Below, piece after piece: positions 19,609-37,176 of a stretch of 64,000 nucleotides of DNA. The stretch is from Planctomycetota bacterium. Its GTDB lineage: Bacteria; Planctomycetota; B15-G4. The notes under the pieces were generated by a model. That model worked only from the letters and a program-made list of their open reading frames with translations, did no database searches and had not been told where the DNA came from. Within the stretch, counting starts at the first letter, position 1. Every line of letters starts with the position of its first letter. The DNA lies in the NCBI GenBank assembly GCA_965248575.1, contig CBDFJQ010000002.1, positions 1,367,574-1,431,573 of the forward strand, in the 5' to 3' direction. A program made the translations under genes and the position numbers.

Positions 19609-21033
19609 TCAGGCCTCGCCAGCGGTGGACAGCAAGCCGATGTAGCGTCGGAAACGCTGCAGCAGCAATTGCGGCCGGCGCAGCTCGCGCATGATGCGCG
19701 AGGGGCGCATGTAGAAGCTCCGGTAGGCCCGGCGGATGGCTGCGGACACCTGCTCGCTGCTCATGACCTTGGCCACACCCACAGGCGTGGTGCCCGTGAA
19801 CTTGTCGAAGTCGAACTCGTCCTCCTGCTCGGCCCGGCTCTCCTTGTAGAGCTTTGTGTCCGGGTACGGCGTCACCACCGTGAACTGGACGGTGTCGGGG
19901 TCGAGGTAGATCGCCAGGTCGATGGTCTCACGTGCCATCGCCGGGGTCTCCTCCGGGAAGCCGATCATGAAGAAGCCGCGCGTGGCAATGCCATGCTTCT
20001 TACAGGACTCCATGACGACCTTGGCGTGCTCGTGGCTCTTGATCTTGCCGCGGCTGTACTTCTTCTGCAGCCCTTCGTTGCCGGCCTCGATGCCGAAGGA
20101 GACCGAGACGCAGCCGCCGCGCGCCATGGCGGCGATGAGCTCGTCGTCCATGGTCTTGATGGCCGTCTCACACTGCCAGAGCACGCCGAGCTTTGCCTGT
20201 TCCAGCATGGCGCTCAGCTCGATGACGCGGTCGCGGTCGTAGGCAAACAAGGGGTCCCGGAACACGATGTTGGTCACACCTTGCTCGTGAACGATTTGTT
20301 TCAGCTCGTCGAACACATTGACGGCTGATCGGCCACGCCACGGAATGCCCTGCGCAACCACGTACCCGCAGTACGTGCAGTTGATGGGGCAACCCCGGGA
20401 GGACTGCACCGTCTGGATGGGCCCCTCCATCGTGGGGATGCGGTACGGCTCCACGGGCAACAGTGCGCGCGAAGGGAAGGGCAAGGCATCCAAGGCGTCA
20501 CCGCGCAACAGCGGGCGGTCCGGGTTGCTGCTGGCCCCGCTCCCACGACGCACCGTCAGGCCATCCACGGCCAGGGGGTCCTCCCCCGCCTCAAGAGCCT
20601 TGAGCATCTGCTCAATGGTCAGCTCCGGCTCGCCGCGCACCACCGCGTCCACCTGCGAACCCGCCATGGCCAGGTCCGGCACCTTGCTGCCCTGGCTGCC
20701 CGTGATGCAGACCACGCTGTCCGGGGACACCTCTTTGATGCGATCGACCAACGCCAGATCCAGCGAGATGGTCGCGCTGGACGTCGCCAGGACCACCAAC
20801 GGCGAGGGGTGGGCCGCCAGTGCCTCCAGCACCACGCTGTCGTCCGATCCGTCCGCCTCGGCGTCCACGACGCTGGCCTGGTGACCCGCCCGCTCCACGA
20901 TGGCCGCCACGTAGAGCAGGTCCAGGGGCGGATAACAGAGCCCTTCACCCACGACCATGCCAAAACCGCCCATGAGCCCTCGGCTCACGCGCTGACTAGG
21001 AGGTGGTGGTGGATTGACGAGCAAGACGTGCAT
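19609..21033 (-). CDS. Cobalamin-binding (class B) radical SAM enzyme
   Basis: N-terminal B12-binding Rossmann-like domain (MHVLLVNPPPP...LLYVAAIVERAGHQASVVD...), then the radical SAM core with the CxxxCxxC cluster motif (SSRGCPINCTYCG) and GGCVSVSFGIE. 474 aa. Confidence 0.85.
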   Translation of the reverse strand: MHVLLVNPPPPPSQRVSRGLMGGFGMVVGEGLCYPPLDLLYVAAIVERAGHQASVVDAEADGSDDSVVLEALAAHPSPLVVLATSSATISLDLALVDRIKEVSPDSVVCITGSQGSKVPDLAMAGSQVDAVVRGEPELTIEQMLKALEAGEDPLAVDGLTVRRGSGASSNPDRPLLRGDALDALPFPSRALLPVEPYRIPTMEGPIQTVQSSRGCPINCTYCGYVVAQGIPWRGRSAVNVFDELKQIVHEQGVTNIVFRDPLFAYDRDRVIELSAMLEQAKLGVLWQCETAIKTMDDELIAAMARGGCVSVSFGIEAGNEGLQKKYSRGKIKSHEHAKVVMESCKKHGIATRGFFMIGFPEETPAMARETIDLAIYLDPDTVQFTVVTPYPDTKLYKESRAEQEDEFDFDKFTGTTPVGVAKVMSSEQVSAAIRRAYRSFYMRPSRIMRELRRPQLLLQRFRRYIGLLSTAGEA

Positions 21034-24200: not shown

Positions 24201-24350
24201 TACCTGGACACCACCGACATCGTCTATCTGCTGCGCGGCGCCGACCAGCTCGAATCCGCGCAGGCGCACGGCGATCTCTACCGCTGGAACACGCGCATGG
24301 ACTGCCAGCACTTCCTCGCCATCTACCGCGACTGGGCCCTCTCCCTCTAG
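21201..24350 (+). CDS. Large (1049 aa) membrane-anchored or secreted protein of unknown function (possible polysaccharide-modifying enzyme)
   Basis: N-terminal hydrophobic anchor (FFHFAGAATLLTLVALAAVVV), a Lys-rich coiled-coil (KKLNKLAKKWAKTGGKIAKKEA...KKAEKKLLKAQKKLLKAQTKLVGL), an acidic Pro-rich linker (PPPEPDPDPTGEPDPDPATNPGPD), then an ~800-aa globular region. GC3 bias is consistent with coding. The exact start is uncertain. Confidence 0.55.
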   Translation: MDGEEPGQQSDLLDDSAQATLNDSHRASARPFFHFAGAATLLTLVALAAVVVEPSEAPTSSSAGINSSAALALGSAGAASERPGLELPSDGDQARNTRLELFDRKPSQSVPLLVDDPQLGAELTGKEQKKLNKLAKKWAKTGGKIAKKEALVVQRIGELAAAQAALVAANALPDGTPEELTQKAKAIKKAEKKLLKAQKKLLKAQTKLVGLNSKLTAFVAAIDEVDPGYFESQTGPPPEPDPDPTGEPDPDPATNPGPDFQGAGVPTLPVFVQEARPSNGTGVTRAGDIATFGIPFSEGDVGIKSGRPALAVSGADSFQFRTLKLWPDGSVQWALCDLQTDVTAGVISQGLVVLGGDGQSVQANLADENGSSIQIDTGPLQATVLKTTFNFLDSVTVDGTLLVDGPSGRGLTGRAPNGDLLVPALTTVTLEENGPTRAMIRVDGTMVDPGAVKFVDFTLRIVARRGSRDLETQLTVRNANIARPQHAVIESLELSVESLLGSSSSSVRMAGHAGEHTGILLSSLDAHLYLAHTATNQAGLGGAQYVPHLPNVSSGSKTFTQEGYEAAIAGSTLQSLGNENLYPEHGWIDLTGPNGGVTVGIRQAPYMYPVSLEAYGSGKVTAGMFSSHNPADFTFSWQQHESRSAVFSFHTGVAADPEAVVRRLDYPVVGRFADYKDYDRAGVFPYRLLTKQEQEEALSLMGINHNISVGNNTFLVTKYLYKGTTGGTNNHAGIELHLGGDWLRHGTGGQYLSAMNLALYKSEWQVARSDNFEDEDDPGASNDQVPHSVGFQSDDEHRYRDGMILAYHLTGDRRLREALYDEAEVLQSVSLWPHERSMYQTLRAMGLVAEFTGDPALIPTLRARLQYITQPTVNVNTASSGWGWETSQDVGQRRYFVNSSDNKNEKPPGENFQCRGFISASLGPLGYFHAARFFASNDPDGMAARGRMRDLSYWAREEIFSNDPNPVNRRLMYSYAVTQQQVTNWENVDFHPILLGMAESYLDTTDIVYLLRGADQLESAQAHGDLYRWNTRMDCQHFLAIYRDWALSL

Positions 24351-25084
24351 GCGCCGCCATCGGCCTCGAGGGGCTTGCGCAACACGCCGTAGAGCGAGAC
24401 ACCAAAGGGCAGGTCCAGCCGCTTCTCGATGGCGATCTCTGTGCGAGTGATGAGCCCTGCCAGCCACTCGGCAGGCGCAGGCATGGGCACCGCGAAGTCC
24501 GACGTGGCTTCCTCAGGCGGTGTGGGCGAGAGCCCGCGCAATTTGCGCAGCGCCCAGACCGGAGGGAAGAGCGCCATCGAGCTGTAGCTCATGCGCTCCG
24601 TGACGAAGCCCGCTTGCTCGAGCCGCCCCCGCAGTTGCGGGCGGCGGTAGCGTCGATGGTGGTGATAGGCCTCATCGTGAGGGCTCCACAAGGCCATGAA
24701 GGCGGGGACCGTGGCGACCAGGACGCCACCGGGGCGCAGCACCCGGTAAACCTCGCGCATGGCCGCCACGTCGTCCTCGAAGTGCTCGAAGGCATCCAGC
24801 GCCAACACCACATCGAAGCCGGCTTTGCGGAAGGGAAGCTCGAGCGCATCCCCTCGGACGATGCGATCGATCCCTCGCTCCCCGCACAGTCGGATCGTCT
24901 CCTCGGAGATGTCGATCCCCCTGATCTCTCCGTAGTCGGCGAGAAAACGGAAGCTCATGCCCGTGGCGCAGGCGAGGTCCAGGATCTGTAGCGGCCCCTG
25001 ACGGGTCACGTAACGGTCCAAGGCCGCGCGCACGAGGGCCCGCCGTCCTTGGTACCACCAATGAGTTTCCTCAATGGCGAACAT
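24347..25084 (-). CDS. Class I SAM-dependent methyltransferase
   Basis: ORF 24347..25345; likely start MFAIEETHWWYQGRR (ATG complement 25082-25084). Motif I ILDLACATGM and a post-I acidic residue GIDISEE. 245 aa. Its stop overlaps the stop of the convergent 21201..24350 gene (CTAG). Confidence 0.8.
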   Translation of the reverse strand: MFAIEETHWWYQGRRALVRAALDRYVTRQGPLQILDLACATGMSFRFLADYGEIRGIDISEETIRLCGERGIDRIVRGDALELPFRKAGFDVVLALDAFEHFEDDVAAMREVYRVLRPGGVLVATVPAFMALWSPHDEAYHHHRRYRRPQLRGRLEQAGFVTERMSYSSMALFPPVWALRKLRGLSPTPPEEATSDFAVPMPAPAEWLAGLITRTEIAIEKRLDLPFGVSLYGVLRKPLEADGGA

Positions 25085-25104
25085 GCGATCGAACTCGGCA
25101 GTGT

Positions 25105-26304
25105 TCACGGGGTGCCGTGTGCTCCACCGGGGCCAGCTACTCTGCCGTCCGACGCCGGTGCTTCCCCATCGGTGGTGCTCTTGTTGCGGGGGTCCACGGG
25201 GCCTCCATGCTTCTCCATGGCGATGATCTTGCGGGTGACCGCGATCATGAACAGGAAGCCACCAGCGAAGATCAGGTAACGGTAGGGGGCGCTGGTCTGG
25301 CGCGCCAGGATCCCGAGGTACGCGATGATCAACGCCAGGCCCCACAGGATCACGACGGCCTCTGCGCTGCTGAACCCACCTCGCACCAAGCGATGGCTCA
25401 GGTGGTGGCAGTCACCCAGGTACACCGGCCGCTTCTCCTTGATCCGCATGAAGACCACGAAGGCCGCATCGAAGAGCGGAATGCCCATGAACAAGACGGC
25501 GGGGATCAGGTGGCTGGCGCCGAAGTCGTGACTGCCAACGCCCATGAAGCCCTTGACCAGGTCGAACTGCACCCACGCCATCCAGAACCCGATGAACATG
25601 CTGCCCGTGTCGCCCAGGAAGACCCGGCTGCGCGGAAAGTTGTAGGGCATGAAGCCCAGGACGGCGGCGAGCAGCACGACGGCCACGGTCATGGACCTGT
25701 AGCTGTCCGTGTTGGACATGTAGAGGATGGCCGCCGCGAAGGAGATGACCGACAGACCGGACATCAGACCGTTCATGTTGTCCGAGAAGTTGAAGCTGTT
25801 GACGATGGTCAGATACCAACCCAGGAAGAAGAGCTGGTAGAGCCATTGCTCTGGACTCCCGCCGCCTGAGATCAGGTCTCTCAAAGTCGGCAGCATGAGC
25901 ACGAGCACGCCCACGATCTGCCCCAACAGCTTGGGCTCGAAGCCCATGGAGTCCTTGAAGATGTCGTCAACCAGCCCGATCAGGAAGATGACGATGCTGC
26001 CCGCTATCACGAAGCTGATGACGGAGAAGCGTAGTCCTTCATCACCCAGCTGGGACTCGGATTGGGTCCAGACCACGGCCAGGCCCGCCATGACGCCGCA
26101 GACGACACCCAGCCCGCCCAGCAAGGGGGTCACCTTCTCGTGGGTCTTGCGGCCCCCAGGCTTGTCCACGATCCCAAAGCGCCGTGCCAGGACGAGGAAG
26201 AGCGGAACGGTGACAAGAGCCACCGCAAGAGCCGCGCCAAAGCCCAAGGCAGCAATCCGAAGAACGGGTTCGTCGAACAAGGAGGAGGTGTCCCGGAAGT
26301 CCAA
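25105..26304 (-). CDS. Polyprenyl-phosphate N-acetylhexosamine-1-phosphate transferase (GT4/MraY-WecA family; initiating transferase)
   Basis: 11-TM protein with WecA/MraY signatures: GIVDKPGGRKTHEKVTPLLGGLG, LIGLVDD, NSFNFSDNMNGL, VFLGDTGSMFIGF. 399 aa. Confidence 0.85.
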   Translation of the reverse strand: MDFRDTSSLFDEPVLRIAALGFGAALAVALVTVPLFLVLARRFGIVDKPGGRKTHEKVTPLLGGLGVVCGVMAGLAVVWTQSESQLGDEGLRFSVISFVIAGSIVIFLIGLVDDIFKDSMGFEPKLLGQIVGVLVLMLPTLRDLISGGGSPEQWLYQLFFLGWYLTIVNSFNFSDNMNGLMSGLSVISFAAAILYMSNTDSYRSMTVAVVLLAAVLGFMPYNFPRSRVFLGDTGSMFIGFWMAWVQFDLVKGFMGVGSHDFGASHLIPAVLFMGIPLFDAAFVVFMRIKEKRPVYLGDCHHLSHRLVRGGFSSAEAVVILWGLALIIAYLGILARQTSAPYRYLIFAGGFLFMIAVTRKIIAMEKHGGPVDPRNKSTTDGEAPASDGRVAGPGGAHGTP

Positions 26305-26373
26305 GGTGACTCTATCCCGATCGGAGAACCGCGGCCAGCTCTAGAGCCTGTCCGCTCCCAAATCCCGGCGCGC

Positions 26374-27444
26374 CTACGTTCTCAAATTCAGACCGCGGCG
26401 GCCAAACCAACGAAAGACGCCATCCACCTCGCACATCACCTCGGACAGATCGCTGTCTTCATTCACCGCGATGCGCTTGAGGTCCAGCAGGGGCGTGGCG
26501 GCGTCATTCAGTCCAGGCATGGCAGTCGTCGAGCTGCGAAAGCCCAGCTCTTCGAGGATCGAGCGCGTCTCCTCGTTGTAGTCCCATGTCCTGCCGTAGG
26601 GATAGGCGAAGGACGCGATGCTGTGGCCCAACCAGGATTCCAGGTCGCGCAGTGAGCCCTCGATCTCCAGGCGCTGCTGCGTGGCATCCAGCGACGAAAG
26701 AATCAGGTGGTTCACGGTGTGGGCTCCGATCTCCACCCCTGCCTTGTCCAGAGCCCGACACTCATCCGGGCCGAGATAGACATGGCTCGCCAGCTCGGCA
26801 TCCACCCCCCCCAGGTCCGAGAAGATACGCGCCAGGATGGTGTCCCGCTCCTTGGGCGTGACCTCGTACTTCAGCAGGCGTTTCATCTCGTACTCGGCGG
26901 CAACGTCATCCTTGGGCAGGCTTCGCAGGTCCTCTCGCAGATGTTGCTTGTCCACCTGCTGGGCGAGACGCTCGGCGAGGTCGTGTGCCCCTCCCAAGTG
27001 CAGTGCCCAGAAGTAATGATGGAGCCAGTTGAGACGCCCCTTCATGGGACCGGTCTGAACGTAGATCGTCGCCGTAGCCCCCATGGACTGGAGCAGGGGC
27101 AGCAAGACGTCGTGGTTGTCGAGGTAGCCGTCATCGAAGGTCAGCACCACCGCATCGGAAGGCACGGCCCCCGATTGCAACTCGTCCACCATCTGGTCCA
27201 CGGTGCACGTTCGATAACCAGCCGCCTGAAGCATGCGTAGCAGGCGCCGCAACTTGGCCTCACTGATCTTCATGTGCCCTGGCAGATAATCCGTCTCCGC
27301 GGGGCTGCCCACGTTGTGGAACATGAGGATGGGCACTCCCTCCCGCGACGCCCGGAACAGCGACCTCAAGCCCGTCAGGTGGAAGGCCTTGGCCACGAAG
27401 GTGGAGAGCCAACGCTTGAGTGTGTGTTTCATCGAGTTCTGCAT
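26374..27444 (-). CDS. Polysaccharide deacetylase family protein (carbohydrate esterase 4)
   Basis: ORF 26374..27987; likely start MQNSMKHTLKRW (ATG complement 27442-27444; the upstream 180 codons overlap the next gene and look non-coding). Motifs ILMFHNVG, LTFDDGYLDNHDVLLPLL, GAHTVNHLIL. Confidence 0.8.
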   Translation of the reverse strand: MQNSMKHTLKRWLSTFVAKAFHLTGLRSLFRASREGVPILMFHNVGSPAETDYLPGHMKISEAKLRRLLRMLQAAGYRTCTVDQMVDELQSGAVPSDAVVLTFDDGYLDNHDVLLPLLQSMGATATIYVQTGPMKGRLNWLHHYFWALHLGGAHDLAERLAQQVDKQHLREDLRSLPKDDVAAEYEMKRLLKYEVTPKERDTILARIFSDLGGVDAELASHVYLGPDECRALDKAGVEIGAHTVNHLILSSLDATQQRLEIEGSLRDLESWLGHSIASFAYPYGRTWDYNEETRSILEELGFRSSTTAMPGLNDAATPLLDLKRIAVNEDSDLSEVMCEVDGVFRWFGRRGLNLRT

Positions 27445-27475
27445 GACGAAAGCTTCGAGAGGTGGTTCGGCGGCA

Positions 27476-28603
27476 TCAGGCGGACAGATGTTCGGCGTCC
27501 CGGTCACCATCGGCCAGATGCCAGCGGGAGATGTCGCCATCCTCCGGACGAGCATCCTTGCGACAAGCACGCACGATGAATGGGAAACGATCCCTGAACA
27601 GTTTACTGCCCGAGGGCTCAGGCCAGCCGAGCTCTCGCAAGGTGGCGGCTGCTGGGTGGTGTAGAAAACAGAGGGCCGTGGCCTCCAGCATCCCGCGTGC
27701 ATGGCCCATGGCGGTGAAGGCCAGCAGCAGCTCCCGTCGAGCCGCCTCGTCCCGGGCGACGTGATCCACAAGGAAGGCATTGCCACCGTGGAACTCCACG
27801 ACGAGCAGGCCGTCGAGCCGCGCAGCCCGCGCCCCGCCCGCTGCTGCCGACACAGCCTCGCCAGGGGCGGGCAACACGTAGCACTCCTGGCGGCCGCTTG
27901 GGGTGTCCACGTAGCGCCAGTTGAGCCAAGCCGCGTCGCGCTCCCCCACCAGCCCCTGGCAGGGCATGGCCGCTTCGCAGAGCTCATCGACGGATTCGGT
28001 CAATCCAACGACCCCATCGAAGCGAGCGACCCGGGTCAGGGGAGAGTGCCAAGCCTCGAATCTCTTGCGATCCCGCCGAAAGCGCCAGCCATCCAGGAGC
28101 GGCGCCAACTGCGCAGCCAGTGGCGCCACGCGCCCCAGTCGACGCAACCCCCGCTCGCTGCGATACCCGTAGCGGAACACGGAGGCTTGTCCGATGTCTT
28201 CCCAGCCGTTGCCCAGGAAGCCCGTGTAGGAGAGACGCCCTGAATAAGCGAACACCCACGGGATGCCCATCTCCCCGGCGGCCTCACACACGATGTCATC
28301 CAGCCCCGTGAAGATGCCCTGCCGTCGGGCCTCCGGAGCGACCATGGCATCGGAAGCCTGCATCAGGAGCAGGGGCTGGCCGTCCCGCCGGAATCTCCGC
28401 GGCACATAGCTGTAGGCACCCACCACCTTTCCCCGCCCGTCCACGGCCACACGCGAGATGGCCGGACCATGGGGGTTCTTTGCATACTTCCAGTCGAAGG
28501 TGTCGACCTGCTTGTCCTTCCGGAAGCAAGCGTTGAACAGCCGACACTGGTCCTCGCGGTCAGCCGCACCGGCCTCGCGCCAGGTCCAGGGGCGTTCGCT
28601 CAT
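27476..28603 (-). CDS. GNAT/FemAB-like acyltransferase (Acetyltransf_6-type, common in EPS loci)
   Basis: ORF 27476..28693; likely start MSERPWTWREAGAADREDQCRLFNACF... (ATG complement 28601-28603, overlapping the upstream gene stop as ATGA). Pattern FDWKYAKNP...VAVDGRGKVVGAYSYVPRRF resembles the BioF2/FemAB-like GNAT fold. Tentative. Confidence 0.5.
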   Translation of the reverse strand: MSERPWTWREAGAADREDQCRLFNACFRKDKQVDTFDWKYAKNPHGPAISRVAVDGRGKVVGAYSYVPRRFRRDGQPLLLMQASDAMVAPEARRQGIFTGLDDIVCEAAGEMGIPWVFAYSGRLSYTGFLGNGWEDIGQASVFRYGYRSERGLRRLGRVAPLAAQLAPLLDGWRFRRDRKRFEAWHSPLTRVARFDGVVGLTESVDELCEAAMPCQGLVGERDAAWLNWRYVDTPSGRQECYVLPAPGEAVSAAAGGARAARLDGLLVVEFHGGNAFLVDHVARDEAARRELLLAFTAMGHARGMLEATALCFLHHPAAATLRELGWPEPSGSKLFRDRFPFIVRACRKDARPEDGDISRWHLADGDRDAEHLSA

Positions 28604-29829
28604 CGGATGCCCGCCGGAGCGTCCACCCGCCCCCCGCCCAGCATCTTCACGGCCCGTTCTACGTCCGAGACCGACAGCTCGTTGTTCCAACACCCGGCAC
28701 CGGCCCGCGCCTCGTCCAGGCCCGGCTTGCCCTCACCTTGGGCACCCGCGTGCTGCACCAGCACCTGGGGTCGGACGGCGATGCGCCGGTCTGCAAACCA
28801 GCGTTGCCAGGCAGAGAGCATGGGGCGCGTCTGTCCGCTACGACCGAGGACGTGCAGCACCACGGCAGACATGCCCGTCACCCGCACGGCCTCGACGGCA
28901 CCTTCCAGACGCGGACGGACCGGGTCGTCCATGGGCGTCCGAGCCTCGGCCTCGATGTCCTCAGGCGAGACGACGAGCACTTCCTTGCAACCTCCTTGGG
29001 CCAAGGTCAGCACGAACGACGGCGAGACGTGATCGGCACGCACACGACAGCTCCAGGGCACACCCGGCGCCGCACCAAACATGCCCCGTGCCACCTCGTC
29101 AGTGAACTCCTGGTCCCGGCCGAGATCGCGATCGTCGAACACCAGCGCGCGGCAGCCGGAGCGCGTCACGGCATGCCGAACCTCTCGGAAGGTGTGGTCG
29201 GGGTCATCCCGCAGGGGACCGACGGTCGTCGTGCGCTGGCCATTGGTCATGCGCGCCGCATAGGCATCCAACGCGAACAACTGCCAGGCCGGCAAAATGT
29301 CGTTCTCGCGATCCGACTCCGCAAGATCGGTGACGTCCACGTCGCACTGCAGCCGCCCTCCATCGAGGCGGGCGAGACCGGGCGTGGACGGTGAGAATTC
29401 CCGCGCGAGGCTCTCGCCGACCGGCCCCAGCATGACCCCTTCCAAATTGGGCAGCAGGGCCATGAGCTCTGCGCCGTAGCGATGGGCCAGGGGGCCACAG
29501 GCCAAGACCGGCGCGGGCCAATCCCAGCCGCTCAGGAGGCTGATGAGCGGACGGGCATCGGGTACGGGGTTCTGGGCCACCGTACTGCCCCCCGCATGCA
29601 ACAACACGAGGTCGGGGCGCCACATCTTGAGTTCACGGCGCACAAGCCGGTGCCCCAGCTGCTCGGAGTCCTGGTCGAGAACGCGCACTTCCGCGCCGTG
29701 GCGCAGAAGCCGGGCGCTCATCATGGCCACATCCCACGAGGGTGGGCCCACGGTCTCGGCCGTTGCGAGGCGAAGGCCACGCTGAGGGCCCTTGGTCACG
29801 ACGATCATGACGCGCCAGCGTCTCTTCAC
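28600..29829 (-). CDS. Degenerate paralogue of class B radical SAM enzymes (B12-like N-domain retained, CxxxCxxC cluster motif absent); predicted pseudoenzyme
   Basis: Collinear with the 19609..21033 protein: MIVVTKGP...WDVAMMSARLLRHGAEVRVLD vs LLYVAAIVERAGHQASVVD; VTRSGCRALVFDDRDLGRD vs GVTNIVFRDPLFAYDRD; LAQGGCKEVLVVSPE vs MARGGCVSVSFGIE. Where the paralogue has SSRGCPINCTYCG this protein has TTTVGPLRDDPDHTF, with no cysteines. Confidence 0.6.
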   Translation of the reverse strand: MKRRWRVMIVVTKGPQRGLRLATAETVGPPSWDVAMMSARLLRHGAEVRVLDQDSEQLGHRLVRRELKMWRPDLVLLHAGGSTVAQNPVPDARPLISLLSGWDWPAPVLACGPLAHRYGAELMALLPNLEGVMLGPVGESLAREFSPSTPGLARLDGGRLQCDVDVTDLAESDRENDILPAWQLFALDAYAARMTNGQRTTTVGPLRDDPDHTFREVRHAVTRSGCRALVFDDRDLGRDQEFTDEVARGMFGAAPGVPWSCRVRADHVSPSFVLTLAQGGCKEVLVVSPEDIEAEARTPMDDPVRPRLEGAVEAVRVTGMSAVVLHVLGRSGQTRPMLSAWQRWFADRRIAVRPQVLVQHAGAQGEGKPGLDEARAGAGCWNNELSVSDVERAVKMLGGGRVDAPAGIR

Positions 29830-29842
29830 GGCAATCCGCCCT

Positions 29843-31096
29843 CTAGTGACTCATCAAATCGCGGTGGACGGCTTCCACCGCATCCAGCTGCTTCTCCAAG
29901 CTAAACATCTGAGAAGCCCGCATGCGCCCCGCCGCCCCCATTCGTTTGGCCAGAGCGGGGTTCAGCAGCAGGCGCCGCAGCCGGTCGGCCATGACCGCCG
30001 TCTGCAGGGGGTTCACCAGGAAGCCCGTCTCACCATCCACCACCACGTCCGAGGGACCGCCCCACATGGAGGCCACCACGGGCCGCCCGGCAGCCATGGC
30101 CTCCAGATTCACCAGGCCAAAGGACTCGAAGCAGAGCGAAGGGCTGACCACCACGGACGCCAGGGAGAAGGCCGCGGCCAGCTCGTCACCTGTCAACCAA
30201 CCGGTGCGGACGAGCCGTTCGGCCCCCAGTCCATTGCGCTCGGCCAGGGCCAGCATCTCCTCGAAGAAGCCCGGCAAGGCATCGCCCACCAACAGCAGGA
30301 CCAGATCGGGCACATCCTGCACCAGGGCGGCCAGGGACTCGACCAACTCGAGCCCTCCCTTGAGCCTGTCGATGCGCCCCCCATAGAGCACGCAGGGCTG
30401 GCCAGCGACACCTAGGCGCTCCGCCAGCTGGCGCGCTACATCAGCCTTTGGCACTGCAACCGCAGGGGGAGCGGCATTGAAGACCGTCGTGCAGGGCCCG
30501 ATACCGCTCTGCGCCAGGGCAGCCCCCATCTCGTCGCTTACGGCCAGCAAGCGATCCACATCCGACGCCAGCACCTTCTTGATGCGCCCATTGCGCAGCG
30601 GATTGAAGCGGCCGCGCACGCAAACGGCACACTTCAGGAGGCCATTCCGATAGGGAACGGGATCGCCCGGCTCGAGCCGCTCGTCCAGGTGACAGAACAG
30701 CTTCTGGTGGCACACGGGCATGATGTCATGCACGTGCAGGATCGTCCTGCAACCCGCAGACCCTGCGGCTGCAAGGGCAGCGTAGCTCAGGTGGATGTGC
30801 AGGTTGTGCACGTGAACGATCTCTGGCCGCACCTCGGCCACCACGCGCTGCATGGCCGAGACGCCCCCGGGGTTGTCCAGGCTGCGCCAAGCCTTCCAAC
30901 GGGGGTTGTAGGTCGGCGTGTACTCCAGGTGCACATCGACCCCGTTCTCGGTCCAGCGGCGAGCCTCAGCAGGCTTCTGGGTCGTAGCCAGGAAGGAGAC
31001 CTCATGCCCCCGACTGGCCAGCCCCTCCGCCATGCGGACCGCGACCCCCGCAGCTGAGGAACGCCCATAGAGATCGTTCGCGACGAGCAGCTTCAT
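29843..31096 (-). CDS. Glycosyltransferase family 4 (GT-B)
   Basis: 417 aa. The C-terminal domain has the GT4 E-x7-E region: VSPSLCFESFGLVNLEAMAAGRPVVASMWGGPSDVVVDGETGFLV. Confidence 0.85.
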   Translation of the reverse strand: MKLLVANDLYGRSSAAGVAVRMAEGLASRGHEVSFLATTQKPAEARRWTENGVDVHLEYTPTYNPRWKAWRSLDNPGGVSAMQRVVAEVRPEIVHVHNLHIHLSYAALAAAGSAGCRTILHVHDIMPVCHQKLFCHLDERLEPGDPVPYRNGLLKCAVCVRGRFNPLRNGRIKKVLASDVDRLLAVSDEMGAALAQSGIGPCTTVFNAAPPAVAVPKADVARQLAERLGVAGQPCVLYGGRIDRLKGGLELVESLAALVQDVPDLVLLLVGDALPGFFEEMLALAERNGLGAERLVRTGWLTGDELAAAFSLASVVVSPSLCFESFGLVNLEAMAAGRPVVASMWGGPSDVVVDGETGFLVNPLQTAVMADRLRRLLLNPALAKRMGAAGRMRASQMFSLEKQLDAVEAVHRDLMSH

Positions 31097-31176: not shown

Positions 31177-32634
31177 TCAGATCTCGGGGAAGTCGCTGGA
31201 CACGGGAGCCTGGGTCTTGCCCAGCTTGAACGCACGGGCCACGCGCGCCTTGCCCTCGTCATCCCAGTTCTCGATGTAGTAACGAATCCGGGCCCAGTAG
31301 CGCTTCGCGCGCGAGGGGAAGGAGTCGTACCAGGCCTCATAGTCTTCCACGAGGCTGCGCTTGATGCGGTTCAGCTCATCGTTGCTGAAGTTCTCATGCA
31401 TGTAGGGCGAGCGGTCCGAGTCCACGTATTCGGTGCGCACGAGTTCCGGGTCGATGCGGTCCGCGTATTGCTCAAAGGAGGCAGTGGCCGTGAGCGGATT
31501 GAACAAGGACGTGCGCACACGGTCCGGCATCGCCGCCCGGATCCCGCGTGCCGTCTCTTCGATGTCCTCCATGGTCTCGCCGGGCGTCCCGACGATCAGG
31601 AAGACCTTCGACCAGATGCCTGCGCGACGGGTCATCTTCAGGCACTCGACCACCTTCTCGGCCTTGTAGTCCTTGATCAGCGTGTCGAGGCTGCGCTGGC
31701 TCACGGATTCCACACCGAAGTACATCCGGTTGAAGCCGGCCTTCTTCATGGTGCGGGCCATGTCGTAGTCGATCATGTCCACGCGCGTCTCGCAGGACAT
31801 GTTCAACTTCAGGCCACGCTTCATGATCCCTTCGCAGAGGTCGTAGACGCGCTGCTTCTGGCAGGTGAACAGCTCGTCGATGAACAGCACGTTGCCCGGT
31901 TCGTAGGTGTCCGAGATCTCCTGCAGCTCGTCCAGGATGTTCTCGACCGAACGCGTGCGGAATCCACGGCCCGTCAACTCCTTCTGGCAGAACACACAGC
32001 GGAAGGGGCAGCCGCGACTGGTGAAGATGTAGAACAGCTTCTCCTTGTTCATCGCGGAGTAGCGCGGGAAGGGAAGCATCTCCCAGGCCGGGAACGGGAT
32101 GCGGTCCAGGTCCTTGATGAGCGGGGGCTGGGGGTTGGCGTGCCGCGTGCCGTCTGCCTTGTTGAAGGCGATACCGGGCACCGACTCCAGGGCATCGCGG
32201 CCCTGGTCGACACCGCGGGCGAAGTCGACGATGGAATCCTCGGCCTCACCACCGATGACATAGTCGATAGCGCTGCCGGCATCCAGGAAGGTGTCCACGT
32301 CGACGGTGGCGTGCGGGCCGCCCATGACGGTGATCACTTCGGGCCGCGCCTGCTTCGCCTTCTCGGCGTAGCGGATGGCACGGTTCACGTGCGGCGTGAG
32401 CGCTGACAAGCCCAGGATGTCTGCCTTGGAGATGTACTCATCCACCTCGGCGGCGGTGCAGACGCGCTCGTCGCAGCACTCCACGTCGCAACCCGCCTCA
32501 CGCAGGATGGCGGACAGGTAGATGATGCCCAAGGGCATGGCGATGAAGAAGTCGTCCTGCCCCGGAGGGGTGACATACATCAGGATGATCTTCTTCTTGG
32601 TGACGGGGGCGCTAGGCGCGTTGTCGCTCATCAA
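31177..32634 (-). CDS. Cobalamin-binding (class B) radical SAM enzyme
   Basis: B12-binding N-domain (KKIILMYVTPPGQD...PLGIIYLSAILREAGCDVECCD) and the radical SAM motif FTSRGCPFRCVFCQ. 485 aa. Confidence 0.85.
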   Translation of the reverse strand: MMSDNAPSAPVTKKKIILMYVTPPGQDDFFIAMPLGIIYLSAILREAGCDVECCDERVCTAAEVDEYISKADILGLSALTPHVNRAIRYAEKAKQARPEVITVMGGPHATVDVDTFLDAGSAIDYVIGGEAEDSIVDFARGVDQGRDALESVPGIAFNKADGTRHANPQPPLIKDLDRIPFPAWEMLPFPRYSAMNKEKLFYIFTSRGCPFRCVFCQKELTGRGFRTRSVENILDELQEISDTYEPGNVLFIDELFTCQKQRVYDLCEGIMKRGLKLNMSCETRVDMIDYDMARTMKKAGFNRMYFGVESVSQRSLDTLIKDYKAEKVVECLKMTRRAGIWSKVFLIVGTPGETMEDIEETARGIRAAMPDRVRTSLFNPLTATASFEQYADRIDPELVRTEYVDSDRSPYMHENFSNDELNRIKRSLVEDYEAWYDSFPSRAKRYWARIRYYIENWDDEGKARVARAFKLGKTQAPVSSDFPEI

Positions 32635-32651: not shown

Positions 32652-34100
32652 TCAGCCACGTCTGGGGACAGTCTGCTCTCGCGCCGGATCGTCAGGCGCC
32701 CCAGAGGCGTCTGCTGCACCGGCACTCCCCCCGGCCCTGGCCTTCATTCTGGCTGGAGCACGGCGAAAGTAGACGAATATGTATACCAGATGAAAAAGGA
32801 CAACGACCTGGCCGAAGCCCGCCGCCGCTGCAGCTCCCTTCGGCCCCCAGGCCGTCGTAGCTAAAAAGATCCCAACGGTCATCAGGGTGGAATACAGCAG
32901 GTTCTGGATCACGCAATGCCGCATGCGGTTCGCGTAGATGTAGAACGGCTCCACGATCACGGCGAAGCCGGTGAACAGATAGCCGGAGGCCAGCAACAGG
33001 TAGATCTCGAAGGATCCTGCGTATCGGCTGCCGTATCCGTAGGTGATGACCAGCCAGACGAAGGGGATCGAGAGCAGCGTCGCCCCGATGGCCAAGCCGC
33101 CTGCCGTCAGCGAAAGGCGCCGCAGCATGCCCCCCAGCTTGTCGATGGGAACATCCGACTGACCCATCTTCAGACCCAGGGTCGGCAAGATGTTCGTACC
33201 AATCGCTCCGATGGCCCCGCCCAGCACCATGGTCAGCACGCTGCCCACCTTGTAGACCCCGTTGTCCTCCATGCCCTCCACCGCCATGGCGTTGGCCGCG
33301 GCCACGGCGGGGATGAAGATCATGCCGAGCCGGGGCACCACGGCGGCCATGGACTTGCCGAGGGCCAGGAGGAAGGAGAGGCCAAAAAAAGTGGAAAGGG
33401 GAGCCTTGGGAATGGCCCGCAGCACCTTCCGGAAGGGTGGCGGCGCCAGATTGGGGTGCAGCTTGCGAGCCCAGCGATAGACGAACAGCCCGGCCACGCC
33501 CGACAGGATTCCATGGGCCACGAAGGCCCAGGCCGCCGAGGTGGGTGTCGCACTCACCCACAGAGCCCCCGAGACGAGGCCCACACGCAAGATGTTCGTG
33601 GCCATGTCAAAGGTGGCGTAGGTCCGCATCTGCCGCGTGCCGTTGAAGATCGCCAGCGTCAGGCTGCGCAGGATCTCCCCCACGACCGCCAGCGACAACA
33701 CCGCCGCCACCGCACCCACGTCGCGGTCGTCCAGGAACCTCTCGGCGAGCGCCGGCGCCGCGAACCAGGCCAGGAGCAAGACCCCCACGGACATCAGGGC
33801 GCCCAGCTTCAGCAGCGCCGCCAGCGCTTGGATGCTTCCCCCCTCGTCACTCAGCCCCTTCGCCTTGCTGTAACGGGACACGGCGGCGTTGGTGAGACCG
33901 AGGTTCACCAGGAAGAACAAGAACATGTAGAGCTCGCGCGATGTGGTCCATCGGCCGAACTCGTATTCGGACAACATGCGCGTCGTGATCAGCGACGTCA
34001 CGAGATAGGTCGCGCTCTGGACAAGGCTCGCGCCTTGCAAGACCAGCGTGTCACGTACGAACTTCTTCTGGCCGAAGGCCTTGATGCGATGACGGATCAC
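32652..34100 (-). CDS. Polysaccharide biosynthesis protein, Wzx-type oligosaccharide flippase (MOP/PST family)
   Basis: 482 aa, about 12-14 predicted TM helices. The N-terminus MIRHRIKAFGQKKFVRDTLVLQGASLVQSATYLVTSLITTRMLSEYEFG is typical of the PST family. Confidence 0.8.
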   Translation of the reverse strand: MIRHRIKAFGQKKFVRDTLVLQGASLVQSATYLVTSLITTRMLSEYEFGRWTTSRELYMFLFFLVNLGLTNAAVSRYSKAKGLSDEGGSIQALAALLKLGALMSVGVLLLAWFAAPALAERFLDDRDVGAVAAVLSLAVVGEILRSLTLAIFNGTRQMRTYATFDMATNILRVGLVSGALWVSATPTSAAWAFVAHGILSGVAGLFVYRWARKLHPNLAPPPFRKVLRAIPKAPLSTFFGLSFLLALGKSMAAVVPRLGMIFIPAVAAANAMAVEGMEDNGVYKVGSVLTMVLGGAIGAIGTNILPTLGLKMGQSDVPIDKLGGMLRRLSLTAGGLAIGATLLSIPFVWLVITYGYGSRYAGSFEIYLLLASGYLFTGFAVIVEPFYIYANRMRHCVIQNLLYSTLMTVGIFLATTAWGPKGAAAAAGFGQVVVLFHLVYIFVYFRRAPARMKARAGGSAGAADASGAPDDPAREQTVPRRG

Positions 34101-35329
34101 GAGCGGGCCCGCCTCCCGCGCACGGCGGCGAGTTCTGCGTAGATGTCCGCCACGCGGTTAGCAGCCCGCTCCCAGGTCTGGCCCTTGGCGCGCTCCAGGC
34201 CCGCGCGCCCCATGCTGCGTGCCCTCTCGTCGTTCTCCAGCAACAGACACAGGGCCTCGGCGAGTCCTGCCAGATCGTCGCGGCTGCGGAGGAAGCCGTT
34301 CTCCCCGTCGGTGATGGCGTCCTCGGCCCCGCTGTCCAGCACACCCACCACAGGCCGGCCGGCGGCGCCGGCCTCCAGGAACACGAGGCCGAAAGCTTCG
34401 AAGCCCCCTTCCTTGCTCGTCTGGGGAGTGAGCATGAAGGCCTGCGCTCCACGCATGAGGGCGACCTTGCGGCCCTCGGTCACATTCCCCAGGAAGTGCA
34501 CATGCTCCTGGGCCCCCGCCGCCTCGATCTGCGCCAGGAGGCCCTGGTAGTACGGGTCCTGCTCGGCGAAGCGCCCCACGATCACGAAGTGTGCCGACGG
34601 GCAACGCTCCCAGGCCTTGAGGAAGGCTGGCAGGGAGGTCTCATAGCCCTTGCGCTGCTTCACCTCGCCCACGCACAGGATGTACGGTTCGGGCACTTCG
34701 GGCGTCTCGCCGCGCGCGGCCAGCACGTCGTAATCGTCCGGCACGCAACCGTAGGGCACCACTTCCGCGTCGCCCGGGTCCACGACCCGCTCCACCTGGC
34801 GCAGGGCGAAGCGCGCACCCATCAGGAAGCGGTCGGCTCGCTTGTACATCCAGTTCAGGAGGTTCTGGTGAATGGGCATGGCGGCGGGAGTCACGGAGTA
34901 GGTGCCGTGACCGCTCACCACCACCGGGCGACCGGAGAGCACCCCGACGAGAACTGCCACGAAGCCCAGCGGGTAGTCGGACAGGCTGTGCACCACATCC
35001 GCGCGCCGCGCCGCGCGCACGAGCATGGGCAAGCTGCTGAACACCAACCACGCCAACTTGGGCAGGTTCAGGAAGGGGAAGTGGTTCATGGGCAACAGCG
35101 GATAGACCGTGACCCCCTTGCGCGGCATGTCGCTGGCGAAGCCCCGGTGCCCACGCCCGATGTACAGCTCGAGACCGGAACAACGCGGAATCAGGTAGCG
35201 CAGGGTCGACACGCTGTAGCGCCCCACGCCGTCCACCTCGGAAAGCGAATGGGTCAGCACCATGACCCGAGGCTTGGCTGCATCTCCGGTCCCGGTATCG
35301 ACGTTGGTCTCGAGCTCTGGCTTGCTCAT
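34097..35329 (-). CDS. Glycosyltransferase family 4
   Basis: ORF 34097..35374; start at MSKPELE (35329) or MVLTHSL (35263). C-terminal GT4 motif FMLTPQTSKEGGFEAFGLVFLEAGAAGRPVVGVLDSGAEDAITDGENGFL. Overlaps wzx by 4 nt. Confidence 0.8.
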   Translation of the reverse strand: MSKPELETNVDTGTGDAAKPRVMVLTHSLSEVDGVGRYSVSTLRYLIPRCSGLELYIGRGHRGFASDMPRKGVTVYPLLPMNHFPFLNLPKLAWLVFSSLPMLVRAARRADVVHSLSDYPLGFVAVLVGVLSGRPVVVSGHGTYSVTPAAMPIHQNLLNWMYKRADRFLMGARFALRQVERVVDPGDAEVVPYGCVPDDYDVLAARGETPEVPEPYILCVGEVKQRKGYETSLPAFLKAWERCPSAHFVIVGRFAEQDPYYQGLLAQIEAAGAQEHVHFLGNVTEGRKVALMRGAQAFMLTPQTSKEGGFEAFGLVFLEAGAAGRPVVGVLDSGAEDAITDGENGFLRSRDDLAGLAEALCLLLENDERARSMGRAGLERAKGQTWERAANRVADIYAELAAVRGRRARS

Positions 35330-37176
35330 CCGTCGCTCCCAGTCCCAGTGTCGAGTCGCCAGGCGCGGATCCAAGGACCCGGTCGCTCGTAGCTCCAGAG
35401 CTGCGTCAGGGCAAACTCCATGTCCGTCGGCAAGGCTGCTTCCCCGGGCGCCGACTGGCCCGTGGGCGAACGCTCGTACACGAGCGTGCCGTGCTGCGCC
35501 GTGAACTCGTCGATGGGCGCACGCGGCTCCGCCACGGGCGCACGGTCCACCCGCACGTAGACGTCAACACTCCACTCCTTCATCCAGGCGTCCAAAGACA
35601 TCTCGATGGGCGGCTTCCCGAACAGGAAGTCCGTCGGGTAGTAGCTGATGTACCGCCAGTAGCGCTGGATAGGCAACAGGTGTCGTGCGTGCAGAGGCGC
35701 TGGCACTCCAGCCTCGGCTTCGGCCACGGCGCGTTGCTCCTGTCGACCGAGCCAGACGGAGCCCGCCTGCGCATCCCCCACCGCGCGGCGCCCCTGATCT
35801 TCCAGCATGGCAACGAGTGTCTCGGCGCGCGGCGTCATGGGCGGACCGTATTGGGCACCGAGCCCATCAACGGCGGCGAGCTCTTCCGGACCGATGATTG
35901 CGAGCAACTCCTGGGACGCCAGCGAGCGTGTGTCCGTTCTCCCGAGCAAGGCGTCCAGACGAGCTGCCTGCACGATGGGGACCGCCAGCAATACGCAGGC
36001 CAGCACGCGCATGGCGCCTCCCCTGCGAGCCAGGGCCGTGAGCAGACGACCAGCACCCAGGGCCAGGAAGGGCACCGCCGTCATCATGTAGCGCACATGG
36101 CTGCCGTCGTAGACCAAGAACAGCGCGCAGGCCAGCAGGGCCGGAACGACCACCAGCAGCAGGCTCTCCCAGCGCGTCTGCCGACAGCGAGCCCAGAGCA
36201 GCAGACCCACCAGCCCGGCCAGCGCCAACACCGGGTCGTAGCCCAACCACGAGCGCAGCACGGTTCCGAAGCGCGCGCCCCCCAGCAGCCCCAGACTGAA
36301 GGCTTGTCCGCCCAGGTCCAGCACCTCGTCCCCGCCTTCCGCCAGGAGCTGGCTCTGGTCCGTCTGGAAACCGGCCCCACTGTCTGCGCCGTGCACCCAG
36401 CTGAACGGATAGCCGAGCGAGAGCAGGACCAGCCCCGCCGCCAGCACGCCGACAGCCAGCTGACCAAGCACCCGCACTCTCTTGCCCGGCTCCGCGCGCG
36501 CCGCGACACACAGCAGCCCCACACAGGGGACCGCCAGATAGAGCAGACCCACCTGGAAGCTCGCCCCGGCCAAGGCGCTGGCGCCGAAGGCGGCTAGCAC
36601 ATCCCGGACCCGACGCCGACGCTGCAGGCGCAGGGTCAACGCCAGACCCAAGGCCGCGAAACCCAGCATCGGCGCCCAGGGGCGAACGGTGTGTGCGAAC
36701 TGGACCACCATCAGGGATGAGCCCGCCAGCAGCGCCGCAACGGCTGCTTCGGCCTTGCTGCGTCTCAGCTCCCGGGCCGCCCGATAGACCCCCCAGGGCA
36801 GCAGCAGAGCCAAGAGCGCCGAGAGCACACGGCCGGGGAACCAGGCCAGCCCAGGGTCCTCGAAGATGGCTTCGGCGAAGGCGCCCGCCCCACCCCATTC
36901 GCCGCTCAGCTTGCCGACGGCAAAGCGCATCCCCAGAGCGCCGAGATTCAGATACGGCAAGAGGTAGGGATAGGTGGTGTAGACAGCGCCCTCGGGAACC
37001 AGCGCGCCCAGCCCGCCGCCGTCCGCTGCATCCCGGGCCATGCCCAACGCACAGCGCACCACCGTGTCGTCCGGCACATAGCGATGCGGCAAGCCATGGT
37101 CGAGCGACAAGCCCATCAAGACGGCCACCAAGACCATCACGGCGCGCAGGGGATGGTCTCGCCCCATAAGCATCAC
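35326..37176 (-). CDS. Polytopic membrane protein, putative GT-C-fold glycosyltransferase (ArnT/PMT-like) or polymerase/ligase-like component
   Basis: 616 aa. About 12 TM helices in the first 430 aa with an acidic PDD in the first loop, then a ~190-aa soluble C-terminal domain. Assignment is by architecture only. Confidence 0.4.
   Translation of the reverse strand: MMLMGRDHPLRAVMVLVAVLMGLSLDHGLPHRYVPDDTVVRCALGMARDAADGGGLGALVPEGAVYTTYPYLLPYLNLGALGMRFAVGKLSGEWGGAGAFAEAIFEDPGLAWFPGRVLSALLALLLPWGVYRAARELRRSKAEAAVAALLAGSSLMVVQFAHTVRPWAPMLGFAALGLALTLRLQRRRRVRDVLAAFGASALAGASFQVGLLYLAVPCVGLLCVAARAEPGKRVRVLGQLAVGVLAAGLVLLSLGYPFSWVHGADSGAGFQTDQSQLLAEGGDEVLDLGGQAFSLGLLGGARFGTVLRSWLGYDPVLALAGLVGLLLWARCRQTRWESLLLVVVPALLACALFLVYDGSHVRYMMTAVPFLALGAGRLLTALARRGGAMRVLACVLLAVPIVQAARLDALLGRTDTRSLASQELLAIIGPEELAAVDGLGAQYGPPMTPRAETLVAMLEDQGRRAVGDAQAGSVWLGRQEQRAVAEAEAGVPAPLHARHLLPIQRYWRYISYYPTDFLFGKPPIEMSLDAWMKEWSVDVYVRVDRAPVAEPRAPIDEFTAQHGTLVYERSPTGQSAPGEAALPTDMEFALTQLWSYERPGPWIRAWRLDTGTGSDG

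Follow-up and report, generated by a model that had tools for sequence, protein, structure and literature searches.

The analysed window is a 64,000-nucleotide stretch of the genome of a Planctomycetota bacterium (GCA_965248575.1, contig CBDFJQ010000002.1). The gene under study, hereafter the target, is an ORF on the minus strand at 28600–29829 with a GTG start, a TGA stop and a translation of 409 aa, identical to the 409-aa protein record P0001. Its TGA overlaps the ATG of a downstream GNAT gene as ATGA (28600–28603), and 13 nt lie between its start and the stop codon of the GT4 gene upstream; the ORF and both junctions were confirmed in the sequence as the first-pass annotation had given them. 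The GC3 of the target was 0.80, compared to 0.77–0.89 in the neighbouring genes, and a promoter and terminator scan of the operon returned sites no more numerous than in shuffled sequence. The features of the locus are as follows.

19609..21033, minus strand: rSAM_A, an intact AprD4/HpnJ-like radical SAM (rSAM) gene with a B12 domain, carrying SSRGCPINCTYCG (translation, Pfam, NCBIfam, PDB 6FD2)
24347..27444, minus strand: rest of the downstream operon, comprising a polysaccharide deacetylase, a WecA-like polyprenyl-phosphate sugar-1-P transferase and a class I SAM methyltransferase (Pfam; deacetylase gene start)
27476..28603, minus strand: GNAT (Acetyltransf_9) gene, 375 aa, downstream of and translationally coupled to the target (Pfam; exact record P0197; orthologues)
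28600..28603, minus strand: ATGA stop/start overlap with the GNAT gene (sequence; same four nucleotides in L001, L002, L003 and L018)
28600..29829, minus strand: the target, CDS of a B12-rSAM-fold protein without an Fe-S cluster, 409 aa (ORF, 50 homologues, AF2)
28762..29232, minus strand: partial (beta/alpha)6 radical-SAM-type barrel, residues 200–356
28912..28935, minus strand: family-specific invariant motif P299-M-D-D-P-x-R305-P306, on the catalytic side of the barrel in the loop that follows strand beta4 (conservation)
29188..29232, minus strand: residues 200–214, TTTVGPLRDDPDHTF, barrel strand beta1 and a short loop replacing the [4Fe-4S]/SAM-binding loop (hhalign gap, conservation)
29380..29829, minus strand: N-terminal Rossmann-like domain of B12-binding type, approximately residues 1–150
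29843..31096, minus strand: GT4 glycosyltransferase gene, upstream, 13 nt from the target start (Pfam, sequence)
31177..32634, minus strand: rSAM_B, an intact B12-binding radical SAM gene (Pfam, NCBIfam)
32652..38802, minus strand: upstream operon, comprising a Wzx-like flippase, a GT4, a PMT_2/GT-C-like membrane protein and a GT4 (Pfam)

Single-sequence searches pointed only weakly to rSAM homology of the target. No Pfam model matched it even at E≤10, including PF04055 and PF02310, and NCBIfam returned just two matches, collinear and both below the curated cut-off. The AprD4-family model NF033070 gave a partial match of 18.3 bits over residues 223–335 against a cut-off of 500, which places the target outside that family, and BLASTP against rSAM_A aligned 73 aa at 26 % identity (E 1e-6).

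Profile and fold comparisons are decisive for this homology. An hhalign comparison of a 30-member target-family alignment with 32 intact B12-binding rSAMs gave a probability of 100 % and an E value of 1.5e-41 over 336 collinear columns (target residues 4–349, rSAM residues 3–367), with the gap exactly at SRGCxxxCxxC, bearing out the proposed collinearity with an intact B12-rSAM. The AF2 model of the target (pLDDT 92.4, pTM 0.90) had AprD4 and TsrM as its closest solved structures in Foldseek (E 2e-15), and the PDB matches by sequence and by fold were rSAM or corrinoid proteins throughout. A search of 1.84 billion proteins with the target-family profile yielded 2578 matches at E≤1e-3, and CxxxCxxC was present in 127 of the 146 newly listed. 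The target is thus shown to be a soluble protein, about 400 aa long, that preserves the entire two-domain layout of class B rSAMs: an N-terminal Rossmann-like domain of cobalamin-binding type ahead of a partial (beta/alpha)6 TIM barrel homologous to rSAM cores. Framework residues of the barrel are retained (D233, W259, C261, R264, G279, C281, G319 and G329), as are G45, D52, G112 and G135 of the intact B12-rSAM N-domain, which in the target also has a family-specific invariant loop, G80-G81...P88-x-P90-D91.

The catalytic motifs of the superfamily are lost from this scaffold. Approximately 20 residues including RGCxxxCxxC are deleted, the hhalign gap falling between P205 and L206; residues 200–214 of the target stand opposite SRGCPINCTYCG... 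of the intact paralogue. The segment in which SSRGCxxxCxxCG would be expected is therefore free of cysteine, as the first-pass annotation had stated, and the alignment confirmed the loss of all three cluster ligands. The ribose-binding GxE after beta4 is lost as well, the invariant G314 and E316 of intact members corresponding to V287 and P289, and the conserved Lys of intact B12-rSAMs aligns to D301/D302. At the GxIxGxxE-type SAM motif of beta5, the target retains the glycines of 'iGxPG' alone.

Ligation of an Fe-S cluster by an alternative set of cysteines, leaving the target a non-canonical radical enzyme, was considered very improbable. Three cysteines are frequent in the family, with C281 the sole invariant one, C261 in 45 of 50 members and C380 in 48 of 50. 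Against such a site, some full-length members have only two cysteines in total, no conserved Cys-rich motif occurs in the 50 members, and CxxxCxxC is found in none of them. Furthermore, C261 and C281 occupy the 'WxC' and 'GGC' positions, both of which intact B12-rSAMs carry in addition to CxxxCxxC. With the loop deleted, GxE and Lys replaced and no other conserved cysteine set, the alignments show that the target is unable to bind the radical-SAM [4Fe-4S] cluster or to cleave SAM reductively.

Loss of these residues has not been accompanied by decay of the gene. The 50 homologues (44–72 % identity) are all full length without frameshifts, and their alignment has 45 invariant columns. The target dN/dS was approximately 0.26–0.33 by NG86 with dS saturating, close to the values for the flippase and GT-C-like genes and above the 0.13–0.24 of the intact rSAMs. 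Compared across loci, the target (45–71 % identity) ranks last or close to last in each of them; its divergence is comparable to that of the flippase, GT-C-like and 1049-aa genes and faster than that of every recognisable enzyme gene of the gene cluster, in which rSAM_B is the most conserved gene (79–90 %). This divergence, together with the absence of a Pfam match, is all that would favour reading the gene as a pseudogene in decay, or the ORF as an artefact of GC-rich DNA. That explanation is refuted, its probability being negligible, by the full-length homologues, the purifying selection, the confident fold (pLDDT 92) and the conserved position and coupling of the gene; the GC3 match to the neighbours likewise agrees with the earlier view that the gene is not decaying.

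Conservation within the barrel is uneven. Residues 204–212, the former Fe-S loop, form its least conserved stretch, while family-specific polar invariants are found at the C-terminal end of each strand from beta2 to beta5. The motif P299-M-D-D-P-x-R305-P306 followed by E309 is invariant in 30 of 30 aligned members and present in at least 98 % of the 50 sequences. Further invariant charged residues in the catalytic-face loops are R234/D235, R262/R264/D266, D301/D302/R305/E309 and R330, and invariant helix residues are H219/R223 of alpha1 and W341/R343/W344/R348 of alpha5. Judging from TIM-barrel topology, the polar invariants would converge on one pocket. Two hallmarks of a pseudoenzyme, loss of essential residues and retention under purifying selection, were observed, so this much of the first-pass description stands. 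Given the polar invariants of the catalytic face, the protein may be read as a 'pseudoenzyme' or, alternatively, as having a site re-purposed for binding or catalysis.

The target lies in what is shown to be a conserved gene cluster for polyprenyl-phosphate-linked glycan assembly, comprising the WecA-like transferase, GT4s, flippase, GT-C, deacetylase, methyltransferase and two intact B12-rSAMs. Gene order was identical in all target-containing loci (L001–L011 and L018–L021), with the target always between the GT4 and GNAT genes and coupled to both, the stop/start overlaps around it being conserved as well. The two-sided coupling noted in the first pass is thus a property of the orthologous loci. 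In the collections searched, the family is small and confined to Planctomycetota.

A collinear outgroup gene cluster, L015, retains all other genes and both rSAMs (66 % and 48 % identity) and lacks the target, its GT4 overlapping the GNAT gene directly. The rSAM_B orthologue is also found in L016 and L017, again without the target. The target is therefore a clade-specific accessory gene that the two rSAMs do not need, and, since GNAT and GT4 work without it in the outgroup, an obligate role as a subunit is excluded. In Pla163 and L016, an intact B12-rSAM gene directly upstream of GNAT was considered as an un-degenerated counterpart of the target and was rejected, being the rSAM_B orthologue (49–51 % identity). 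The genomic context of P0061, the closest intact relative of the target, was uninformative.

The first-pass annotation had called the target a radical-SAM paralogue and suggested it as a partner of the active rSAMs. Superfamily homology holds, but close kinship does not: the in-cluster rSAMs scored 35.5 and 23.9 bits against the target-family HMM, compared to up to 92 for unrelated intact B12-rSAMs. By profile score the target is no closer to the in-cluster enzymes than to unrelated B12-rSAMs, and so did not arise by recent duplication of a would-be partner. These scores weaken the proposal that it is a non-catalytic regulatory, substrate-presenting or chaperone partner of an intact B12-rSAM, by comparison with enzyme/pseudoenzyme heteromers. 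The proposal draws on the common superfamily and fold, on the co-occurrence of both intact rSAMs with the target in every target-containing locus long enough to show them, and on a conserved Trp/Arg helix surface (W341, R343, W344 and R348) that could be an interface. As the target never adjoins or is coupled with an rSAM gene, and the outgroup clusters keep their rSAMs without it, we consider such a partnership improbable.

Several characterised systems resemble the target or its surroundings in part. AprD4 (PDB 6FD2; NF033070), the radical SAM 1,2-diol dehydratase of apramycin biosynthesis, likewise has a B12-like Rossmann domain and a partial barrel, and its amino-sugar substrate fits the gene context of the target; AprD4 has CxxxCxxC and cleaves SAM, whereas the target lacks the whole loop and GxE. 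The AprD4-like gene proper of this locus is rSAM_A, which matched 6FD2 at E 1.5e-40. In comparison with the class B rSAMs TsrM, MgmA, CysS, OxsB and TokK, the target is without the [4Fe-4S] site and the SAM motifs and is missed by PF04055 and PF02310. In Elp3, an rSAM domain that has its cluster and is catalytic is fused to a GNAT/KAT domain. The parallel with the target and GNAT is architectural only, as these are separate proteins, no specific sequence relationship was found between Elp3 and the target, and the GNAT gene occurs without an rSAM-like gene in the outgroup.

In hopanoid side-chain tailoring by HpnI, HpnK and HpnJ, a glycosyltransferase adds GlcNAc and a deacetylase acts, followed by a B12-type rSAM (PMC13459092). 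The likeness is to the gene cluster (GTs, deacetylase and HpnJ/AprD4-like rSAMs) and not to the target; the HpnJ model score of 198 bits is far below the cut-off of 577, and no cluster-less component has been described in that pathway. By analogy, the combination of GT, deacetylase and HpnJ/AprD4-like rSAMs suggests radical remodelling of a de-N-acetylated amino-sugar. Literature searches on cluster-less, degenerate or pseudoenzyme radical SAM proteins and on a planctomycete rSAM/GT cluster yielded nothing relevant, in line with the first-pass view that the arrangement is essentially undescribed for glycan pathways.

Two uncharacterised proteins, P0156 and P0188, also combine a B12 domain and an rSAM barrel without CxxxCxxC. 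Their loop is full length but Cys-free whereas that of the target is deleted, they are detected by Pfam whereas the target is not, and at 60–62 bits against the target-family profile, compared to more than 450 for members, they fall outside the family. Their genomic contexts also differ from that of the target, P0156 adjoining an Mla-type transporter operon. Their lack of a cluster site shows that Fe-S loss has occurred more than once in the superfamily.

For the role of the target, we tentatively favour, as the likeliest reading of the sequence evidence though by no means an assured one, a non-radical ligand-binding or adaptor subunit. The former [4Fe-4S] site would have become a short variable loop while the other catalytic-face loops kept their invariant charged residues. 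The remnant of the ancestral substrate pocket may hold the product of the upstream GT4, an amino-sugar or lipid-linked intermediate, and the target may then pass this intermediate to, or tune, the downstream GNAT/deacetylase step, possibly docking with a partner through the conserved helix surface. Its place among the fastest-evolving genes of the gene cluster fits an adaptor and equally a weakly constrained remnant, and the outgroup arrangement limits any such subunit to a non-obligate role.

The same polar residues could instead belong to a neofunctionalised enzyme, its rSAM barrel adapted to act on the sugar intermediate by non-radical, Fe-S-independent catalysis. This reading is realistic if rather unlikely. 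In its favour, the invariant acidic, basic and His residues follow beta2 to beta5 on the TIM-type catalytic face, the target is an add-on relative to the outgroup as an extra tailoring step would be, and its dN/dS is comparable to that of bona fide enzymes and transporters of the gene cluster. Candidate chemistries under this reading would be acid/base or metal-dependent epimerisation, dehydration or phosphoryl/acyl chemistry, with D301/D302, E309, D235, D266, H219 and Arg as candidate residues; a single clade-specific modification would thereby be added after the GT4 reaction and before that of GNAT. Conversely, the target shows no likeness to known non-radical enzyme families and has no Pfam or NCBIfam match above the curated cut-off, its PDB matches by sequence and fold are all rSAM or corrinoid proteins, and no recognisable enzyme gene around it evolves as fast.

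Retention of cobalamin by the B12-type domain was considered quite improbable. The target would then serve the two B12-rSAMs as a carrier or reservoir of cobalamin, or take part in polar (non-radical) methyl transfer with the SAM methyltransferase of the gene cluster. To our knowledge, cobalamin binding in class B rSAMs has no diagnostic sequence motif. The shared framework residues G45, D52 and G112 are compatible with binding, and TsrM, which ranks second among the structural matches, is a B12-rSAM working without radical chemistry, although it still needs its [4Fe-4S] cluster. However, the B12-like domain of AprD4, the best structural match, does not bind cobalamin, no Pfam B12-binding model matched the target at E≤10, and a family-specific insertion has reshaped the loop that follows beta3. 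Taken more broadly, an active enzyme or cofactor-handling protein on the rSAM/B12 scaffold without Fe-S, having either a new non-radical site (D301/D302/E309/D235/D266 with Arg and His) or serving as a cobalamin-only component, is possible but doubtful.

The rSAM superfamily is in practice defined by its cluster motif; homologues lacking it go undetected by Pfam and carry the label 'hypothetical'. The significance of the present case is limited by how common pseudoenzymes are among large superfamilies and by the small size and, in the collections searched, planctomycete-only distribution of the family. The target nevertheless provides a clean, conserved and high-confidence case, with P0156 and P0188 as two independent further ones, that selection can maintain a B12-rSAM scaffold once the Fe-S cluster is lost. 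It is a conserved, optional extra gene of a planctomycete sugar-polymer gene cluster, and the existence of a collinear cluster without it offers a natural with/without comparison of what the cluster-less scaffold contributes to the glycan. Should the target prove to be an Fe-S-free enzyme or cofactor handler, it would add a clade-specific modification to a planctomycete envelope glycan and be a documented case of the rSAM fold leaving radical chemistry behind.

The target gene was found to lie in a cluster running on the minus strand from 40595 down to 24347.

Genes of the cluster, in order, and those past its end
1. 38370–40595, minus, sulfatase-family gene
2. minus, GT4
3. minus, PMT_2/GT-C-like gene
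4. minus, GT4
5. minus, Wzx-like flippase
6. 31177–32634, minus, intact B12-rSAM (rSAM_B)
7. minus, GT4
8. 28600–29829, minus, target (GTG start, 409 aa; open reading frame and translation)
9. minus, GNAT (Acetyltransf_9)
10. minus, polysaccharide deacetylase
11. minus, WecA-like transferase
12. minus, down to 24347, SAM methyltransferase
Past the methyltransferase: 21201–24350, plus, 1049-aa PcRGLX-like gene
Past the 1049-aa gene: 19609–21033, minus, intact AprD4/HpnJ-like rSAM (rSAM_A)
Past rSAM_A: 16334–19604, plus, Mla-type transporter genes

As the first-pass annotation had described, the reading frame, the ATGA shared by the target stop and the next gene's ATG (28600–28603) and the 13 nt between the upstream GT4 stop and the target start are all present in the sequence, and the coding bias is in line with that of the neighbours (GC3 0.80 versus 0.77–0.89). 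GAGGG lies about 10 nt 5′ of the GTG. An identical 409-aa protein is already on record in NCBI/ENA.

Every retrieved locus with the target, in each case from a Planctomycetota MAG or metagenome, showed the identical gene order, and most had the 4-nt GT4/target and target/GNAT overlaps. Based on the families present, the cluster looks like one for polyprenyl-phosphate-linked glycan assembly with amino-sugar tailoring; the likeness to HpnI/K/J logic (PMC13459092) is an analogy only. In one target-containing lineage (L020/L021) no flippase occupied the usual site between GT4 and rSAM_B, the order being otherwise the same. The oppositely oriented 1049-aa gene, with weak PcRGLX (rhamnogalacturonan-lyase-like) domains, keeps its position in related loci reaching that far and is poorly conserved in sequence (42–69% identity). 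Divergent sulfatase/alkaline-phosphatase-superfamily genes (38370–40595, minus; 40699–43857, plus) mark the upstream edge, one of them holding the same position in loci L001, L015 and L017. The mechanical deacetylase ORF (26374–27987, minus, 537 aa) shares about 500 nt with the GNAT gene; most orthologues have 352–365 aa, and the true start is probably ATG 27444 or 27432, 31–43 nt past the GNAT stop.

Judged from its single sequence, the target's homology to radical-SAM enzymes would appear thin. It had no Pfam match even at E≤10, and two sub-threshold, collinear NCBIfam matches (BchE model 1–74 on residues 6–82; AprD4 model 240–353 on residues 223–335). BLASTP gave 26% identity over 73 aa to rSAM_A (E 1e-6) and E 0.005 to rSAM_B. 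At the family level the evidence was decisive. Fifty homologues were recovered (44–72% identity, about 400 aa), all annotated 'hypothetical' and none with a Pfam domain, and the family is covered by no Pfam or NCBIfam model. A profile from an alignment of 30 of these matched a single PDB sequence, AprD4 (6FD2, E 8e-7), and its hhalign comparison with 32 intact B12-rSAMs, including both window paralogues, gave 100% probability (E 1.5e-41) over 336 columns (target 4–349 versus 3–367). The AlphaFold model built on the family alignment (pLDDT 92.4, pTM 0.90) retrieved AprD4 and TsrM first in Foldseek (E 2e-15), then MgmA, OxsB, MiaB and TokK. Among 1.84 billion representatives the family comprised about five full-length 50%-identity clusters, with profile scores falling from 455 to 106 bits at its edge. 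Beyond it were 2578 matches (E≤1e-3), mostly of 450–500 aa and covering both domains; CxxxCxxC was present in 127 of the 146 newly listed. The top non-family match (P0060, 106 bits), a metagenomic protein of 1879 aa, has two or more rSAM modules with CxxxCxxC intact.

The loss of the cluster cysteines noted in the first pass was borne out by hhalign, in which R-G-C-x3-C-x2-C and the next ~10 residues of the intact enzymes face a gap at P205/L206, a deletion of about 20 residues (target residues 200–214 read TTTVGPLRDDPDHTF). G314/E316, the invariant SAM-ribose 'GxE' after beta4, are replaced by V287/P289, and a near-invariant Lys by D301/D302, invariant in the target family. The framework residues G45, D52, G112, G135, G151, P180, D233, W259, R264, G279/C281, G319 and G329 are kept. 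C281 is the sole invariant Cys in the 50 near-full-length members (C380 48/50, C261 45/50); in several of them the Cys total is just two or three, and no conserved Cys-rich motif was found. C261 and C281 occupy the 'WxC' and 'GGC' positions, which intact B12-rSAMs have besides the cluster motif. An alternative cysteine triad is therefore very unlikely, and an alternative Fe-S site is essentially excluded. The target is a B12-rSAM-fold protein unable to do radical SAM chemistry.

Every homologue was full length, with 45 invariant columns, and Nei-Gojobori dN/dS against three orthologous loci was 0.26–0.33, upper estimates because dS (~1–1.5) is saturating. Values elsewhere were 0.30–0.43 for the flippase, 0.19–0.36 for the GT-C-like gene and 0.13–0.24 for the two intact rSAMs. 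Amino-acid identity of the target across loci (45–71%) was among the lowest in the cluster, compared with 79–90% for rSAM_B. The target is therefore constrained yet fast-evolving, and a pseudogene is essentially excluded, in agreement with the earlier annotation.

That annotation also made the target a paralogue of the cluster's rSAM; the shared fold and collinear profile alignment support membership of the same superfamily, but it is no close paralogue or recent duplicate, since the intact neighbours score only 35.5 and 23.9 bits with the family HMM versus up to 92 bits for unrelated intact B12-rSAMs. Pairwise BLASTP likewise gave 55.8 bits with P0061, the closest intact relative, and 36.6 with rSAM_A. 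Distant cluster versions were located by searching with the coupled GNAT. In L015 (JGI 3300056625, Ga0558121_00887, 1–21128) the whole glycan cluster is fully collinear with the one described here (rSAM_B 66%, GT4_b, the GT4 just upstream of the target, 46%, GNAT 38%, deacetylase 39%, methyltransferase 56%, rSAM_A 48% identity), the target is missing and the stop codon of GT4 overlaps the start codon of GNAT. L016 and strain Pla163 (L017) have rearranged clusters, again without the target, the gene upstream of GNAT being an rSAM_B orthologue (49–51%). The target is therefore a clade-specific accessory gene, and both intact rSAMs, GT4 and GNAT can work without it. That it partners the active rSAMs, as was proposed, is conceivable but doubtful: gene position, this relatedness and the outgroup cluster with both intact rSAMs and no target all speak against it.

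Within the barrel, residues 204–212, the short loop replacing the cluster loop, are the most variable part, and polar residues that are invariant or nearly so come after strands beta2 to beta5.

Conserved residues of the target barrel
R234/D235, polar
R262/R264/D266, polar
P299-M-D-D-P-x-R305 and E309, polar
G329-R330-x-G332

Further invariant residues lie on two helices (alpha1 H219, R223; alpha5 W341, R343, W344, R348). The ligand or catalytic face of a TIM-type barrel is built from the loops that follow its strands, and this topology would place the conserved polar residues of the loops there. The most likely reading, held tentatively, is a non-radical ligand-binding or adaptor protein, which would employ the substrate-pocket remnant and the conserved helix surface. 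The main rival, a genuinely new non-radical enzyme acting from the same face, seems rather unlikely, and a putative corrinoid-binding role for this B12-type fold is very improbable.

Genes for MlaE, MlaF and an MlaD-like protein (16334–19604, plus) adjoin rSAM_A (19609–21033, minus), also in orthologous and outgroup loci (L001, L002, L015), and P0156, an unrelated Cys-less HpnJ-like B12-rSAM homologue, lies divergently beside an MlaEFD operon in L013. These placements hint that this rSAM type is connected with lipid transport.

The literature searches turned up no paper on rSAM homologues that lack the Fe-S cluster, nor any on this glycan cluster, consistent with the earlier description of the arrangement as essentially undescribed for glycan pathways. 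P0156 (L013:4306-5691) and P0188 (L014:227-1597), Cys-less B12-domain/rSAM-barrel homologues among the profile matches, lack CxxxCxxC; their loop keeps its full length but has no Cys, and Pfam still recognises both. They are independent cluster losses outside the target family, so cluster loss is recurrent in the superfamily, though undescribed. The small size of the target family limits its significance. Selection retains the target as a translationally coupled accessory gene between GT4 and GNAT, and with L015 as a natural 'minus' comparator the system offers a clean, testable comparison of the cluster with and without it.
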